Positions 31,297 through 37,836 of a stretch of DNA of 49,350 bases are shown here, piece after piece (the stretch's first letter is position 1; every line of letters starts with the position of its first letter). Source of the stretch: a virus (lineage: Duplodnaviria; Heunggongvirae; Uroviricota; Caudoviricetes); the IMG/VR virus record IMGVR_UViG_2671180676_000008. One strand, written 5' to 3'. The notes under the pieces are model-generated. The model searched no databases. It saw only the letters and a program-made list of their open reading frames with translations, and was not told the DNA's origin. The position numbers and the translations under genes were made by a program.

Positions 31297-31583
31297 AAAT
31301 AACCTTCCTTTCTCCAGATTTCTTGTGTGCGAAAAACACCTTCTGCATGCATCAGGCGTAATTCTTCTTTGGTGTAATCGCTGGTTTTTACCCGCCCGTC
31401 GATTAAATCGTGGCATGAGCTACAGGCAATCGCTGCCTGCATATCGTGTGGTTTTGTCGCTGTTCCGCACGTCCCCGCCAGCCTGTAATGCGCCAGCACA
31501 GAGGTTTCGGGATTGTGATTGCAGTAGCCAGGGATTCTGATCTGGCACATCTGGCCTTTAGCCGCTTTACGTAAATTCACCAT
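31293..31583 (-). CDS. YbcO-like Cys/His-rich nin-region protein
   Basis: 96-aa ORF with a C..C..H..C..C..H pattern, just upstream of Q. Confidence 0.5.
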   Translation of the reverse strand: MVNLRKAAKGQMCQIRIPGYCNHNPETSVLAHYRLAGTCGTATKPHDMQAAIACSSCHDLIDGRVKTSDYTKEELRLMHAEGVFRTQEIWRKEGYL

Positions 31584-32182
31584 TACGCAAACTCCAGTAG
31601 TTGTGCGGCCACATTTTCAACTTCCTCCTGAGAGGAGAATTTACGGAACAGAATCCAGTTCCACAGCACATTCAGAACAGATTTATAAACCTGCTGAAAC
31701 TCGGTTTCGTCCATATTCGCAAACGCGATGGATTTCGCCCTGCGCCCACGGCTACCGTCCGGATAAATATGCTCGGTGTAAAATCCGGCCTGAATGGTTA
31801 CCCACTCGCGGAAAGCCTCAAACGACTTTAGCAATGCCGTATCCCGAGTTCTGCGTGTCGCAACTGTATTTAGATATTGCTCTGCGGCATCACTCAGGGC
31901 TGGTGTGTGTTCCCGACCAACTGATTCGCACAAGTAATCCACGAAACCAGACAGCAGTTCTCGTTCGCGAGGTGTGATCGCCCCACCGACCGGAGTCCAG
32001 TAATCGAATCCCAGTTGCAGGAGTTTGAAAAAACGCTTGTGGAATGCGTAGTTACGCACACGCTTAAAGTCTGCGTGTATCCACTCACCTATTTTGATTT
32101 GATGCAGAAAATCGCAACTCTCCGGCGTCGCCGGGAGAAGTAAACCAGAAGAGGTTTGTTTGACCAGTTGTATATGCGCCAT
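31583..32182 (-). CDS. Conserved lambdoid nin-region protein, function unknown
   Basis: 199-aa ORF tightly packed upstream of the YbcO-like gene. Confidence 0.5.
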   Translation of the reverse strand: MAHIQLVKQTSSGLLLPATPESCDFLHQIKIGEWIHADFKRVRNYAFHKRFFKLLQLGFDYWTPVGGAITPRERELLSGFVDYLCESVGREHTPALSDAAEQYLNTVATRRTRDTALLKSFEAFREWVTIQAGFYTEHIYPDGSRGRRAKSIAFANMDETEFQQVYKSVLNVLWNWILFRKFSSQEEVENVAAQLLEFA

Positions 32183-32462
32183 TTCTCAATCTCTCGATGG
32201 CGCAGCGCAGCAGATGCCAGTTGTTCAGGCTGACGAATAAAGTATAAATAAACTGGCTATGGTGTAAAGCCCCACATAGCATGAACAAACACTACATATC
32301 AAATAGCTGGTACAAGGATAGAAATACGACATTTATTATTAAAAACGATTAGATAAATTACATTTTAATGTTATGCAAAAGTTCTTTTTTATCATAACAT
32401 TTCAATAAAAGCATTACAGATGCAATCATCCCGTCATCATCAATTATTTAAGGTGGTTAAAC

Positions 32463-32549
32463 ATGGAAAATAACAAGTTCGCACATCTCGCTCCTTTTTT
32501 ATCCGTAATCCTTTTCGCTTGTTGTTTTATATGGGCATTATTTTTATAA
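32463..32549 (+). CDS. Candidate small hydrophobic peptide (28 aa)
   Basis: ATG preceded by AAGGTGG at good spacing; translation MENNKFAHLAPFLSVILFACCFIWALFL; in an AT-rich spacer. Not in the ORF track. Confidence 0.3.
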   Translation: MENNKFAHLAPFLSVILFACCFIWALFL

Positions 32550-32940
32550 AGTAGCCACATGATAAGTTGCTGGAATCATATTTCCCACTCAAGTCATTAA
32601 CATTTGATAAGATATATCTAAAAGGACACCTTTACATTATTTATGTGTATATAATTTATTTATATACACAGTAAAGGTATCCTGGGAAAATATTTATCGT
32701 TAAAAAATACATCATAAATAATTAAGCTGAAATTTCAGAACACAACTAATACACACAATAAGGTTCAGTAACAATAATCTATGTGGACTACATCGAGATT
32801 TTTTGATTAAACTTTAATAACTTATTCCTAACACACAGAATGCATAAACTAAAAGTAAAACAAATAGTTATACGAAAAACAACCATATTTATTATATCTT
32901 CTCCTCTAATCAACATATCAATTATGTGTTTCATAACAGC

Positions 32941-32988
32941 TTGACATAACCCTCAAAAACACGCATTTATAATACATGTTTTTGAGGG
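32941..32988 (+). promoter_or_regulatory. Promoter-like elements with a 12-bp perfect inverted repeat upstream of the yeaR-like gene
   Basis: TTGACA (32941..32946) and TATAAT (32968..32973), 21 bp apart; inverted repeat ccctcaaaaaca/tgtttttgaggg (32951..32988) encloses a GCATTTATAATACATG core and overlaps the SD. Confidence 0.4.
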
Positions 32989-32995
32989 GGTGGTT

Positions 32996-33334
32996 ATGAC
33001 ACACAAGAGAATTCCTAAAGATTGGGTAATCAAACGCTCAACTCCGTTCTTCACAAAAGAGAACGTACCTTCAGCGTTATTAACACATCATAATACAGCA
33101 GCAGGTGTTTTTGGGCAGTTGTGCGTAATGGAAGGCACTGTAACATATTATGGTTTTACTGATGAGAATGCTACTGAACCGGAGATAAAAGTAGTCATTA
33201 ATGCTGGCGCTTTTGCAACAAGCCCACCACAATACTGGCACCGTGTTGAACTAAGCGATGATGCTCAGTTTAATATTAACTTTTGGGTCGCTCCAGACTT
33301 CTCGGGCGAAAAAGTCTATAGCACCAAAAAATAG
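32996..33334 (+). CDS. YeaR-like DUF1971 family protein
   Basis: RSTPFF..K...GV.G.L.VMEG.V.YYGF.DE...EP...I.AG.FA..PP.YWH..E...D..FNI.FWVAP pattern matches E. coli YeaR as I recall it. Confidence 0.65.
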   Translation: MTHKRIPKDWVIKRSTPFFTKENVPSALLTHHNTAAGVFGQLCVMEGTVTYYGFTDENATEPEIKVVINAGAFATSPPQYWHRVELSDDAQFNINFWVAPDFSGEKVYSTKK

Positions 33335-33363
33335 ATGATCATATTAAAAATGCTTTAACAGTC

Positions 33364-33400
33364 AGACCCGGCAGGGCTATCCCCGACGGGTCTCATTTTT
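33364..33400 (+). terminator. Putative terminator downstream of the yeaR-like gene
   Basis: Stem agacccg/cgggtct with a long loop, followed by CATTTTT. Confidence 0.35.
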
Positions 33401-34096
33401 GTAAATATATTGGTTCTACATTGACAGGAGACTTCAACCATAAGAAGTAATCTGAATACTTGAGCAATAAATTTACTTAAGATTAATGAGCGCACCTTGC
33501 CGGACAAAGATAAACCAAGGTAACACCTTTTTTCTAGCCAGTATGTAATCAATCAGAAAGCCGCTCCATAAGAACAACAGCAAGACAATAAATTGCCATT
33601 ACAGCCGCAATAGCCAGCGCACATTTGAGAACCAGCACGACAACCCCCTGTATTAGACGCACACCAGTCCTGATAAATATGAGGCTGTCTCGTCAGTGAT
33701 TCAATACAACTATTGGGTATAGTTTCTGTGATTTTATTCTGTAGAAATGGAACACAACAACCAGTCACCACCAGCACTTCTTTAAATACGCCAAGTCCGA
33801 CGCAAGCTAACCTTCTAGTCCGCTTTGAGCGAAAAGCGGACAGGAACATTCTGGTTAATAGATATCAATGCTAACAAAAAAGCTCCCGATGGAGATTTTG
33901 AAACCGCTTCCACATAATGAAATAAAAGGATTTATTTCTGGTCATGCCCACACATTGACCACGTCGAAGTAAGTAGCTCCGCTTCGCGGAGTTACTTAAG
34001 ATAATTTCTATGTAGTTCCATGCTATGATTTAATTTTCAAGTTACAAAATCTAAATCTACAAATGTCCATTTGGGTGTAAAATTACACAATCCTAT

Positions 34097-36422
<2,326 letters not shown>

Positions 36423-36540
36423 TTTAATTACCTTATATATCCAAACTCTTAATTTTCTCTTTTTTACCATAGGATTAATCCAAAATAAAGACCTTGTTGA
36501 CTAAACCCTCATGTACAAAATGCACACTTACTCAAAAGGA

Positions 36541-36566
36541 TCTGGAGGCAATCTCGACCTCCATGA
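36541..36566. promoter_or_regulatory. Imperfect palindrome between the TetR-like gene and the deaminase operon (candidate operator)
   Basis: atctggaggcaatctcgacctccatgat contains the inverted repeat tggagg / cctcca. Confidence 0.3.
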
Positions 36567-36723
36567 TTTAGTTCCTAGGGATAAGCAGAAATCTAGCACT
36601 GGATTAAAATTTAAAAATAATAATCAATAGGTTATAATGGTTTTTATTCGCATCCATGGGATCTGCTGCTGCCCGCATGATGTTGGATGCGACGGCGCTG
36701 GCACGACCTCACCCGGTGAAACG

Positions 36724-37170
36724 ATGAAACGCGAAAGGGTTGTTCTTCGGGAAGGTGCAGTTGGACTTTCAATCGATGACGTTGCAAAAGAGGCTGGCGT
36801 CAGTAAGGCAACGGTAATGTACGATCATAAGTCAAAGCAAGATTTGCTCAGCGATCTCATCAGTCGCCTTATGCCAGTAGAGGAGGAACGTGTTCAGCAA
36901 GCGATAGCGGAAAGTAATAATACCCCACATCCCGCACTCTATGGGCGAATTATTTCAGCCAGTAATGCTCTCAGTCATACTGAGAGAGCAGTAGTGCTGG
37001 CGGTCAGCGAATCGTTAACTAACGATACGAATATCAGGGACACCATGCGTTCCTGCACAAACAAAGATTTGGATGAGATAAAAAGAGGACCAAAACCAGA
37101 CGTTGCCGTCCTGGTATATTTGGCGTTATCTGGTATCTACTGCCAAGAATTTTTTGATTTTTACAAATGA
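36724..37170 (+). CDS. TetR-family-like transcriptional regulator (short)
   Basis: LSIDDVAKEAGVSKATVMYDHKSKQDLL resembles a TetR N-terminal HTH; divergent from the operon; alternative start at 36637. Confidence 0.55.
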   Translation: MKRERVVLREGAVGLSIDDVAKEAGVSKATVMYDHKSKQDLLSDLISRLMPVEEERVQQAIAESNNTPHPALYGRIISASNALSHTERAVVLAVSESLTNDTNIRDTMRSCTNKDLDEIKRGPKPDVAVLVYLALSGIYCQEFFDFYK

Positions 37171-37443
37171 TCTCCTGGCGAGCGAGATAAAATTATCGAA
37201 GGCATTCGCTGTTTGTATGAATCATACCCTTACAAGTCTGAATAAATAATGTCTCCGGGAATGACATTTCATGTGCGACTAATTCGCGATATTCCTATAC
37301 GTAAAGGTCCGCTTTTGGCACAAAGTGGACAACCACGCTAGCTCTACCCTGTGCCACAAAATGTCAATTTGCATCTGAACTAATGCACTTTAATCTCGTC
37401 ACTTCAATAAATACCGAACATCCCCCTGATAAAACGACAATAT

Positions 37444-37836
37444 TCACTGCATAACTTCACTCTTCAGGCACTCGCGACAGATTATGTTCAGACGCCTGTC
37501 GTAACGGCGTATTTCTCCGTCTGGTAATGACCAGATAAGGTCAGGATCAACCACAACCGGTTTCTTCACCTTTGTCCTTGATAGTTTTTTGCGGGCGTTT
37601 TGCCAGTCTTTACGCGCCTGCTCAGACGGGAATAATCCGTAGCCTGAATTGTAAACATCACCACTGGCGACTAGTTCTCTGGCGAGAGTGCTTATGTAAT
37701 ACCTTGATGCACCGGTTTTAGCCTCCAGAGCCCGTAACGTCTCGCGACCGCTCAGAGGTACAAGTTCAACAACCTGTCCTTTAATTTTTTCTCGCTCTTC
37801 TGGTGTAAATACTTTTGCCATAGGTGCCTCCGGCAA
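37444..37836 (-). CDS. Hypothetical phage protein (130 aa)
   Basis: ORF in the post-replication region; no recognisable motif. Confidence 0.45.
   Translation of the reverse strand: MPEAPMAKVFTPEEREKIKGQVVELVPLSGRETLRALEAKTGASRYYISTLARELVASGDVYNSGYGLFPSEQARKDWQNARKKLSRTKVKKPVVVDPDLIWSLPDGEIRRYDRRLNIICRECLKSEVMQ

Follow-up and report, generated by a model that had tools for sequence, protein, structure and literature searches.

The Kongming operon

The window analysed here is a 49,350-nucleotide stretch of a Caudoviricetes virus (IMG/VR record IMGVR_UViG_2671180676_000008). Within it, a cargo cassette of 3.5 kb (33818-37330) with a 24-nt hairpin at either end carries three genes that overlap or adjoin one another on the - strand, an A+T-rich upstream region and a divergent TetR-like reading frame. 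The first gene, komA (35442..36422, -), encodes an adenosine deaminase in its 326-aa form, with its start at ATG 36422 (Pfam A_deaminase, PF00962, E 2.2e-46). It is followed by komB (34891..35445, -), which encodes a Ham1-like, catalytically dead dITP sensor (Ham1p_like, PF01725, E 2e-39), and by komC (34097..34891, -), which encodes a SIR2-like NADase effector (SIR2_2, PF13289, E 1.5e-26). Deaminase, Ham1-like and SIR2-like genes together make up the three-gene composition of the Kongming system.

KomA and KomB are each 100% identical to the corresponding proteins in Table S1 of the Kongming paper (Zeng et al., bioRxiv 10.1101/2024.12.20.629578), and KomC is identical to WP_000436711.1, the KomC accession of that paper. 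The KomA start was adopted from the same source and agrees with the H15/H17 numbering. The diagnostic residues listed there were all found: H15 and H17 in KomA, N9, K12 and E15 in KomB, where His 65 stands in place of the catalytic Asp, and H146 in KomC. Judged by protein identity, the operon is the published Kongming system, already characterised with the E. coli NCTC13216 proteins, and there is no difference within the operon itself. This identification came from the literature, as PADLOC 2.0.0 has no Kongming model; the program matched KomA to CARF_ADA only and KomC to ThsA-like SIR2 models, and returned no match for KomB.

According to the available text of the Kongming publication (bioRxiv 10.1101/2024.12.20.629578), KomA and a phage dNMP kinase together produce dITP, which KomB senses, and KomC depletes NAD+. 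Control is described there as post-translational and exerted by dITP, the system being non-toxic until the phage dNMP kinase is present. The same text reports that Kongming defends when cloned with its native promoter only, and that such a clone, whose promoter fragment is of unstated extent, is active in MG1655, which lacks this cassette. dITP-triggered NAD+ depletion and phage defence may be attributed to the present operon from this work on identical proteins. The available text mentions no flanking TetR relic, palindrome or boundary hairpins, and describes no associated regulator.

A disrupted TetR gene upstream of komA

The sequence-only reading had placed a short TetR-like helix-turn-helix (HTH) protein divergently from the operon, and its family assignment is borne out. 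The longest TetR-like ORF spans 36637..37170 (+, 177 aa), and PGAP calls a 148-aa ORF at 36724..37170 (+; WP_000818068.1, 'TetR/AcrR family transcriptional regulator'). Pfam TetR_N (PF00440) matches with an E-value of 4e-7 and 30.1 bits against a cut-off of 24, at profile positions 11-45 of 47 only, and TetR_C_28 (PF17937) matches at positions 15-76 of 96 only, under its curated cut-off. A profile of the family also matches solved TetR structures (best 6azh_A, E 5.6e-7). The TetR homology is beyond chance.

The gene does not encode an intact short protein but is disrupted by an insertion, a frameshift and a stop codon. Its 5' piece (MGSAAARMMLDAT; 36656..36694, +) begins at the ancestral ATG with an N terminus as in the metagenomic protein P0001, and the LDAT motif of this piece corresponds to ILDAA/VLDAT in intact relatives. 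Next comes an insertion scar in helix 1 (36695..36732, +), which relative to P0009-P0011 is 38 nt long here and 30 nt in the metagenomic copy L005. Within the scar, an 8-nt tandem duplication, GTGAAACG followed by ATGAAACG (36716-36731), shifts the frame and creates the annotated ATG at 36724. The main body (36733..37167, +), to which the two Pfam matches belong, covers the end of helix 1, an intact pair of HTH helices (2 and 3) and most of the C-terminal domain. It runs into a premature TGA (37168..37170, +) in place of the TGG codon of a Trp conserved in all intact relatives, and the last 24 codons are thereby removed. They persist in frame but untranslated, as SPGERDKIIEGIRCLYESYPYKSE and its stop codon (37171..37242, +), and match the last helix.

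In a structure model of the intact relative P0010, which is of moderate confidence only (pLDDT 66.7), the untranslated remainder maps to helix 9 (residues 164-180), and the 148-aa product is missing helix 9 entirely, along with the first half of helix 1. The last helix of TetR proteins is part of the dimer interface. Thus, with helix 1 interrupted by the insertion and frameshift and helix 9 lost, the full helical architecture of a TetR/AcrR protein is not retained. MAFFT puts the N-terminal gap differently from a manual alignment of MMLDAT with ILDAA, but the N terminus is aberrant under both, and tblastn matches to intact relatives start only at residue 24 of P0001. No Shine-Dalgarno sequence was seen ahead of the ancestral ATG (36656). 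By its sequence, the 148-aa ORF may still give a small DNA-binding product initiated at its own ATG.

Base composition changes abruptly at the ancestral ATG. The kom genes have 33-37% GC, and from this ATG on the content goes from 31% to 62% and then to 44% (62.5% in the first 48 nt of the TetR gene, 44.5% in its 3' part). The step points to a separate origin of the TetR remnant from the operon. The suspicion that the regulator gene is less AT-rich than the operon (31-37% GC giving way to 44-62%) and was separately acquired or truncated was correct, as both ends are truncated and the frame is shifted.

Decay of the TetR gene in other cassette copies

The Kongming and TetR unit travels together in E. 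coli (roughly 80 copies; strains NCTC13216 and LD27-1 are carriers), Providencia and Enterobacter, and its copies carry different lesions in the TetR gene. At the position of the premature stop, TGA is found in six copies, TGG in L005, L006, L050, L053 and L063, and TGC in the Providencia copy L002. The latter has an insert of ~230 nt with an Ogr/Delta fragment at the point of the helix-1 scar, and the metagenome copy L061 has a larger insertion at the same point together with a +1 indel, its TetR homology ending at 37101. The Enterobacter TetR gene (L006) contains three stop codons, L053 a 36-nt duplication, L062 a -10 indel and a truncation at 37083, and L063 a -1 indel. In Citrobacter (L010), where the cassette is 97-98% identical, TetR homology stops at 36704, leaving only the 5' piece of ~16 codons. 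Further frameshifted versions form the protein clusters P0006, P0007 and P0013. Altogether, the copies show at least seven independent indels or truncations in TetR and three extra stops, whereas the 2.3 kb of kom coding sequence has no indel among the 11 copies compared.

Pooled pN/pS, which combines non-independent pairwise comparisons, is 0.84 for TetR versus 0.25 for komA, 0.09 for komB and 0.18 for komC. The TetR gene is therefore neither uninterrupted nor under the purifying selection of a working TetR/AcrR gene, and from these lesions and ratios it is a pseudogene that evolves neutrally. One copy (L005, protein P0001, 192 aa) is in frame from ATG to stop, yet it keeps a 10-residue insertion in helix 1, and its pN/pS against the window is ~1. 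The relic is near full length in most close copies, which we put down to linkage and youth (2-3% divergence) rather than to selection.

Intact relatives and their operator

Intact TetR relatives share ~40-54% identity with the remnant and have a nine-helix architecture and an autoregulatory palindromic operator. Upstream of 19 of the 25 intact relatives, the motif GAACGnnCGTTC occurs no more than 150 nt away and with at most one mismatch, and in several of them it sits between a -35-like hexamer (TTGCAT or TTGATT) and a -10-like element. The recognition helix of the remnant is nearly identical to that of relatives with an upstream GAACGnnCGTTC, but the motif is absent throughout 33818-37330 even at two mismatches. 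Compared with TetR/AcrR repressors defined by PF00440 and PF17937, the remnant is of the same descent and still shows HTH helices 2-3 and the greater part of the C-terminal domain, but differs in its broken frame, interrupted helix 1, lost last helix, neutral evolution and missing operator and ribosome-binding site. The relic has evidently lost the promoter and operator architecture of its family.

No kom genes were found at the loci of about two dozen intact TetR relatives, and no TetR gene lies within 6 kb of 12 complete distant komABC loci, where the immediate upstream neighbours at 9 of the 12 are unrelated proteins. From these 12 loci, and from the available text of the Kongming paper, no regulator is part of the system, and Kongming operons in general evidently do without TetR. 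A search for an intact close TetR orthologue among protein-database hits, E. coli genomes, phages, plasmids, metagenome contigs and IMG/VR viral contigs gave none; the best plasmid match, from Alphaproteobacteria, reaches at most 51% identity.

The intergenic palindrome

The gap of 166 bp claimed between operon and regulator holds for the longest ORFs (36471-36636); the functional gap, from KomA ATG 36422 to the ancestral TetR ATG 36656, is 233 bp. This A+T-rich region (36423..36655; 31% GC) presumably holds the kom promoter and leader. A search of its - strand for a sigma-70 komA promoter matching at least 9 of 12 consensus positions gave no match, and manual inspection gave weak candidates only. 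A promoter-like site upstream of the TetR remnant, TTTAAA-17-TATAAT (36610..36638, +; 10/12 match), is not conserved, with relatives having indels of 3-6 nt in or beside the spacer and 10 indel events falling in 36601-36655.

The proposed palindrome is present as the inverted repeat TGGAGG-N9-CCTCCA at 36543..36563, but its suggested role as the operator of the regulator is not supported, as it bears no resemblance to the relatives' GAACGnnCGTTC. By its size the palindrome is no more than chance would give: 67% of shuffled versions of the 233-bp region contain an inverted repeat with 6-nt arms and a 0-12 nt spacer, and the expectation across the window is ~1.2 such repeats per 233 bp. A G+C-rich arm in A+T-rich DNA arises in 0.7% of shuffles, a criterion picked after the sequence was seen. 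Besides one chance match with a mismatch, the palindrome is found elsewhere only in close copies of this cassette. Its arms are invariant in 14 copies, the sole difference lying in the loop, which amounts to 1 difference in 231 compared positions versus ~2.5% nearby (Poisson P ~0.02, uncorrected for shared ancestry). Of 11 copies, 7 differ at the adjoining position 36542, and 36601-36655 varies freely.

Independently of the relic, the palindrome could instead act in cis in this Kongming variant, whether as a hairpin of the komA leader RNA, as a weak terminator or insulator that blocks read-through from upstream, or as a site for another DNA-binding protein. In its favour, the arms are identical while the flanks vary, the stem is G+C-rich within DNA of 31% GC, and on the - strand, which is the kom sense strand, the repeat scores as a weak terminator-like hairpin with the tail GATCCTTTTG and has a 7-pair stem with GAUCCUUUUG directly after it. 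However, the copies are all closely related, which makes invariance weak evidence, and show no compensatory changes; the folding z-scores of -1.4 and -1.9 are unexceptional, a scan of 33700-37450 against Rfam (E <=1) gave nothing, and the distant Kongming loci have no counterpart of the palindrome, whose size is in any case that expected by chance. We hold this reading tentatively, as somewhat less probable than its negation; it is compatible with the TetR-like ORF being a relic. A 10-codon mini-ORF that overlaps the palindrome (-; ATG 36564 to TGA 36532) was considered as a leader peptide and rejected, with too few substitutions to judge and one copy altering the stop. Overall, we infer that the palindrome is not a TetR operator and that any activity it has would be exerted in cis, within the kom leader or promoter.

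Boundary hairpins and the cargo slot

The left boundary hairpin, GTCCGCTTT-GAGCGA-AAAGCGGAC (33818..33841), is an exact match to the hairpin pattern, and the right one, GTCCGCTTT-TGGCAC-AAAGTGGAC (37307..37330), has one mismatch to it. The pattern occurs twice in the window versus 0.01 expected. The Providencia, Enterobacter, Citrobacter and metagenome copies become homologous exactly at the left hairpin (33818), and the homology stops inside the right one, at 37325-37330. In ~900 other E. coli genomes (for example, UTI89, L009), the common segment extends only from the right hairpin to DUF977. In many lambdoid prophages the same slot holds different cargo between these hairpins, in at least nine other size classes, and an 'empty' slot also exists, in which the two hairpins have a start-to-start spacing of 42 nt. 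As intrinsic terminators the boundary hairpins were rejected, there being no T-run after them.

Short palindromic elements flanking interchangeable cargo at a fixed slot recall the attC cassettes of integrons. Unlike in those, neither an integron integrase nor attC core sites came to light here: on inspection, the hairpins show no attC-like GTTRRRY cores, and the window has no integrase adjoining the slot. The promoter-stem-loop (PeSL) mini-cassettes of T4-type phages, reportedly described by Arbiol and colleagues in 2010, are alike in having short palindromes around interchangeable cargo at a fixed genomic slot. In contrast to both repeat-bounded systems, the hairpin stems here are near-identical rather than conserved in structure only. 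General recombination, recombination of the Red/RecET type or site-specific recombination may mediate the exchange of hairpin-bounded cargo. A full-text literature search for a hairpin slot in lambdoid prophages gave nothing specific, and to our knowledge a dedicated hairpin cassette slot of these prophages is undescribed.

Other cassettes between the same two hairpins hold pairs of a regulator and an enzyme (LysR with GNAT, HxlR with NmrA-like, XRE with GNAT), and phage Evi has a regulator and an acetyltransferase at the same place. The relic could accordingly be left over from earlier cargo of this kind: Kongming (33-37% GC) would have taken the place of the partner gene and of the TetR promoter and operator, and the repressor gene would have been left to decay. 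The GC content of the relic (44%) is like that of the regulator-enzyme cassettes (42-48%) and unlike that of Kongming, and the composition break coincides at the ancestral ATG with the loss of operator and Shine-Dalgarno sequence. Yet E. coli genomes, sequenced phages, plasmids and IMG/VR viral contigs yielded no cassette with an intact close TetR orthologue, a non-phage donor could just as well have supplied the fragment along with Kongming, and the Providencia and Citrobacter copies lie in integrase-associated islands rather than in lambdoid prophages. This origin, which again is compatible with a non-functional relic, seems to us rather unlikely.

The wider proposal is similarly doubtful: that the relic marks cargo turnover, with the 24-28 nt palindromes (GTCCGCTTT-N6-AAAGCGGAC; loops TGGCAC and GAGCGA) just downstream of the replication module acting as recombination sites for the exchange, inversion and export to other mobile elements of regulator-enzyme pairs and of defence systems such as Kongming, and with a TetR-controlled cargo having lost its partner gene and operator to Kongming. 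The hairpin boundaries point to how defence systems shuffle among lambdoid phages and out to other islands.

A probable relic copied with the cassette

The reading that we prefer, and consider very probable, is that the TetR-like ORF is a non-functional relic between the Kongming upstream region and the right hairpin of the 3.5-kb cassette, copied along without a role in operon control. The relic would be copied whenever the cassette 33818-37330 moves, which would explain why it always adjoins the operon. Kongming itself would be controlled after translation, with dITP made by KomA and a phage dNMP kinase, sensed by KomB and answered by KomC through NAD+ depletion. We infer that the relic has no regulatory role.

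Some defence systems have dedicated repressors, such as the WYL-type BrxR/CapW, and these resemble the present arrangement in that an HTH gene lies upstream of the defence operon with a palindrome between them. Those repressors are undamaged, are retained alongside their systems and have defined operators to which they bind, whereas here we are dealing with a pseudogene that other Kongming operons lack. That the short protein is a working repressor acting on TGGAGG-N9-CCTCCA and keeping a toxic operon silent until a signal arrives is therefore very improbable: it could draw on the divergent arrangement, the recognisable HTH, the promoter-like site, a palindrome whose arms are invariant and whose size would suit an operator, the co-travel of TetR and kom in three genera and the BrxR/CapW precedent, but the gene has a frameshift, a nonsense codon, a helix-1 insertion and no last helix, other copies have different inactivating lesions and a pN/pS near neutrality, the near-identical recognition helix goes with GAACGnnCGTTC rather than with the palindrome, distant Kongming operons lack the gene and the Citrobacter copy keeps only a stub, and Kongming works from its native promoter without such a gene and does no harm before a phage dNMP kinase enables KomA to produce dITP.

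Recognising the ORF as a relic is mainly corrective. The RefSeq label is the name of an intact gene, and the evidence speaks against building a repressor-operator model for Kongming on it; Kongming would need no linked repressor, which fits the published post-translational trigger. The by-product, namely the hairpin cassette boundaries, may matter more. If the remnant has been read correctly, a repaired TetR protein, without the helix-1 insertion and with TGA restored to TGG, would bind GAACGATCGTTC DNA and not the 233-bp intergenic DNA.

The TetR-like gene

The window is a Rac-like lambdoid prophage of E. coli whose early region carries a cI-like repressor gene (41109, + strand) and, on the − strand, the early genes ydaU (O-like), ydaV (DnaC-like), DUF1627 and DUF977. 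The TetR-like ORF and the palindrome beside it form the right-hand end of an A+T-rich cargo region between DUF977 (37444-37836) and DUF1367 (31583-32182). The ORF is present on the + strand (36637-37170, 177 aa), divergent from the operon, and PGAP (NCBI) calls a 148-aa version of it from ATG 36724 (WP_000818068.1, 'TetR/AcrR family transcriptional regulator'). The TetR-like HTH assigned by the sequence-only reading is borne out: Pfam TetR_N matches with E 4e-7, its coverage limited to profile positions 11-45 of 47. A subfamily profile matches solved TetR structures, the best being 6azh_A (E 5.6e-7). Pfam TetR_C_28 matches below cut-off over profile positions 15-76 of 96. Because the coverage of both Pfam profiles is partial, both protein ends are missing.

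The gene is also less AT-rich than the operon, as first described, with 44.5% GC in its body and 62.5% in its first 48 nt vs 33-37% in the kom genes (GC3 22-31%); the intergenic DNA has 31%. This step coincides with the ancestral TetR start, ATG 36656. With both ends missing and a GC step at the ancestral ATG, the 'separately acquired or truncated gene' first offered as an alternative proves to be the correct reading.

Lesions were read from a three-frame translation and the DNA alignment of cassette copies (A1). The homologue P0001, a 192-aa metagenomic form, starts MGSAAARMMLDATALARPHPVKRERVV and ends FFDFYKWSPVERDKIIEGIRCLYESYPDKS. In the window, an 8-nt tandem duplication at 36716-36731 (GTGAAACG followed by ATGAAACG) shifts the frame, and the ATG used by PGAP comes from its second copy. 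The codon at 37168 is TGA, against TGG or TGC in other copies, and the 24 in-frame codons past it correspond to a conserved C-terminal helix. Where the intact relatives P0009-P0011 (51-54% identity) read LDA[TA]ERV, P0001, though in frame, has ten additional residues (ALARPHPVKR) between LDAT and ERVV. P0010 was modelled with AlphaFold (nine helices, pLDDT 66.7), and of this model the helix boundaries alone were used; placed on it, the 148-aa product would begin halfway through helix 1 and stop before helix 9. The last helices of TetR proteins form the dimer interface. Judged from its sequence, the TetR-like gene is a pseudogene. RefSeq/PGAP carries the 148-aa ORF (36724-37170) as an intact regulator, not a pseudogene.

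Decay in other copies

The 3.5-kb cassette recurs at 97-99% identity in a Providencia rettgeri island (L002), an Enterobacter bugandensis lambdoid prophage (L006) and a Citrobacter island (L010). It is also found in eight metagenome contigs (L005, L050, L052-54, L061-63) and in IMG/VR viral contigs, in full in L075 and L127 and in part in L065 and L077. Mapped onto window coordinates, the TetR lesions of these copies comprise an insert of ~230 nt at 36722 that includes an Ogr/Delta fragment (L002); an insert at the same point together with a +1 change and truncation at 37101 (L061); three stop codons (L006); a 36-nt duplication (L053); a 10-nt deletion and truncation at 37083 (L062); a 1-nt deletion (L063); and a break at 36704 after ~16 retained first codons (L010). 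No indels were found in the 2.3 kb of kom coding sequence across 11 copies. Pooled pN/pS is 0.84 in the TetR body vs 0.25 in komA, 0.09 in komB and 0.18 in komC, a large contrast drawn from comparisons that are not phylogenetically independent.

Breakpoints of independent copies cluster within ~50 nt of the helix-1 coding region (36695-36745): a 30/38-nt scar, the 8-nt duplication, the Providencia insert (L002 7848-8052), the Citrobacter truncation and the L061 break (36722/36733). The pattern suggests that insertions and deletions have repeatedly affected one site. Among the cassette copies, the 64 nt that separate the TetR frame from the right boundary hairpin (37243-37306) are unusually conserved, with 2 differences in 512 compared positions vs ~2.3% in the TetR body.

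The Kongming operon

A full-text literature search led to the defence system of Zeng et al. (bioRxiv 10.1101/2024.12.20.629578), in which KomA is an adenosine deaminase, KomB a catalytically dead Ham1-like protein and KomC a SIR2 protein. KomA (326 aa from ATG 36422) and KomB of the window are identical to the sequences of E. coli NCTC13216 in Table S1 of that preprint, KomC is identical to the KomC accession given there, WP_000436711.1, and the diagnostic residues are all found (KomA H15/H17; KomB N9/K12/E15/H65; KomC H146). By sequence identity, then, the operon beside the TetR-like ORF is Kongming. According to the same preprint, synthetic komABC that included 'the native promoter' was placed in pET28a or pCDF; it gave MG1655 protection from many phages, and cells were killed only with co-expressed phage dNMP kinase. 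The check on the system is therefore the requirement for dITP, not transcriptional silencing, and the preprint mentions no regulator for Kongming. The proposal that a repressor keeps the operon silent is not supported, the gene being a pseudogene and Kongming being gated by the dITP signal (bioRxiv 10.1101/2024.12.20.629578).

The family operator

Intact TetR relatives lie in unrelated genomic contexts, and no kom genes were found near them, including 22 more relatives from a metagenome scan. The palindrome GAACGnnCGTTC occurs upstream of 19 of 25 intact-relative loci (at most 1 mismatch), and ACGATCGTTCG upstream of three more. At many of these loci GAACGnnCGTTC has a TTGCAT/TTGATT hexamer on one side and a −10-like element on the other, the arrangement classically seen in TetR promoters under autoregulation. 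In its recognition helix (SKATVMYDHKSK) the relic is nearly identical to the intact relatives. A search of the cassette with up to 2 mismatches found no GAACGnnCGTTC motif, and the ancestral ATG has no Shine-Dalgarno sequence before it. Since both are missing and GC breaks at the same point, the native 5′ region of the relic has been replaced by A+T-rich DNA from the Kongming side.

Among 12 complete komABC operons (47-72% identity) from Pseudomonas, Halomonas, Salinicola, Citrobacter amalonaticus, a planctomycete and a Nitrospiraceae genome, none has a TetR gene within 6 kb, and in the nine whose immediate upstream neighbours were scanned, these are unrelated. The TetR-like feature is a pseudogene carried along by a defence system that is already known; the repressor-operator model is unsupported.

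Cassette boundaries

Homology among all copies starts at 33818 and stops at 37325-37330. A 24-nt palindrome, GTCCGCTTT-GAGCGA-AAAGCGGAC, forms the left boundary hairpin (33818-33841), and its copy, GTCCGCTTT-TGGCAC-AAAGTGGAC, the right one (37307-37330); the pattern has two matches vs 0.01 expected. These hairpins deserve a separate look. The relic lies inside the unit they bound (kom upstream region, relic, right hairpin), so any move of the unit would carry it, and for this reason the relic is always next to the operon.

Matches to 36400-37450 were found in 985 E. coli genomes, 80 of which cover most of the query. Those of the 80 that were listed have the TetR-Kongming block; a spread sample of the rest matches only in the stretch from the right hairpin into DUF977, and in UTI89, for one, two other genes form the cargo there. 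In IMG/VR, 66 contigs hold the exact-stem palindrome. The two loop types pair around cargo, with start-to-start spacings of 1466 nt (11 contigs), 2080 (9), 1204, 1418, 1832, 1974, 3416, 3489 (Kongming) and 4039 nt; one contig has a pair spaced 42 nt, and some have three or four close copies. The layout is fixed: one backbone type has replication genes, DUF977, hairpin with GTGCCA loop, cargo and hairpin with TCGCTC loop in this order, and in lambda-P-type phages the entire module is inverted. Among the cargoes are NUDIX+HAD, a DUF7380-DUF4209 protein, GNAT+XRE regulator, NmrA-like+HxlR regulator and LysR+GNAT; phage Evi has a regulator and an acetyltransferase in this slot. Several cargoes are regulator-enzyme pairs of 42-48% GC, which makes it plausible that the relic descends from an earlier cargo of TetR and a partner, in which Kongming took the place of the partner and the operator; against this, no intact close orthologue of the relic was found.

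Hairpin-flanked cargo follows the replication genes in many lambdoid prophages (L006, L064-L129). Stems are conserved and loops vary; at least one variant (L083), CTAT...ATAG for CTTT...AAAG, is a double change that keeps pairing. The UTI89 prophage (L009 3922-5901) has two adjacent, uncharacterised hypothetical genes (~320 and 333 aa) and the DUF977-proximal hairpin only. Among the commonest alternative cargoes is the 595-aa DUF7380-DUF4209 protein (L067 3782-5569; also L073, L087, L092, L103, L112, L119, L120, L124, L126), a candidate defence gene accompanied or interrupted by insertion-sequence (IS) genes in two contigs. Past the left hairpin, a second cargo block (32200-33817) contains a DUF1971 gene (32990-33334, + strand) and a 25-30% GC stretch (~32290-32990) without an ORF of at least 50 aa. 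The same DUF1971 block follows Kongming in L075 and L127, and the corresponding region of UTI89 has hokD.

The intergenic palindrome

The palindrome first noted, with tggagg/cctcca arms, is there as TGGAGG-N9-CCTCCA (36543-36563). When the 233-bp region (36423-36655) is shuffled, an inverted repeat of its size arises 67% of the time; only the G+C-rich arms are unusual, at 0.7% of shuffles by a post hoc criterion. Its folding z-scores are −1.4 and −1.9. It is confined to close copies of the cassette, and no counterpart was found upstream of distant komA genes. In 14 of 14 copies the arms are identical, the sole difference falling in the loop. Differences per compared position reach 2.95% in 36423-36542 and 4.6% in 36601-36655, where ten indel events lie in or beside the spacer of a + strand promoter-like site, TTTAAA-17-TATAAT, which is therefore not conserved.

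There is about one chance in three that the palindrome truly serves this Kongming variant as a cis element, be it as a hairpin in the leader, as a weak insulator or as a site for some other protein. Such a role is favoured by the invariant arms, by the count of 1 difference vs ~5.8 expected at the ~2.5% local neutral level (Poisson P ~0.02, our estimate, which ignores shared ancestry), and by the kom sense strand, on which the palindrome reads as a 7-pair stem followed by GAUCCUUUUG. That it is the operator of the TetR relic, as first proposed, is very improbable, as it shares nothing with the GAACGnnCGTTC operator of the intact relatives, itself absent from the cassette.

A mini-ORF of 10 codons, MEVEIASRSF* (36532-36564, − strand, the kom sense strand), overlaps the palindrome, with AGGA ~10 nt upstream. 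Substitutions in it are few, and its stop codon is altered in one copy. It is probably due to chance.
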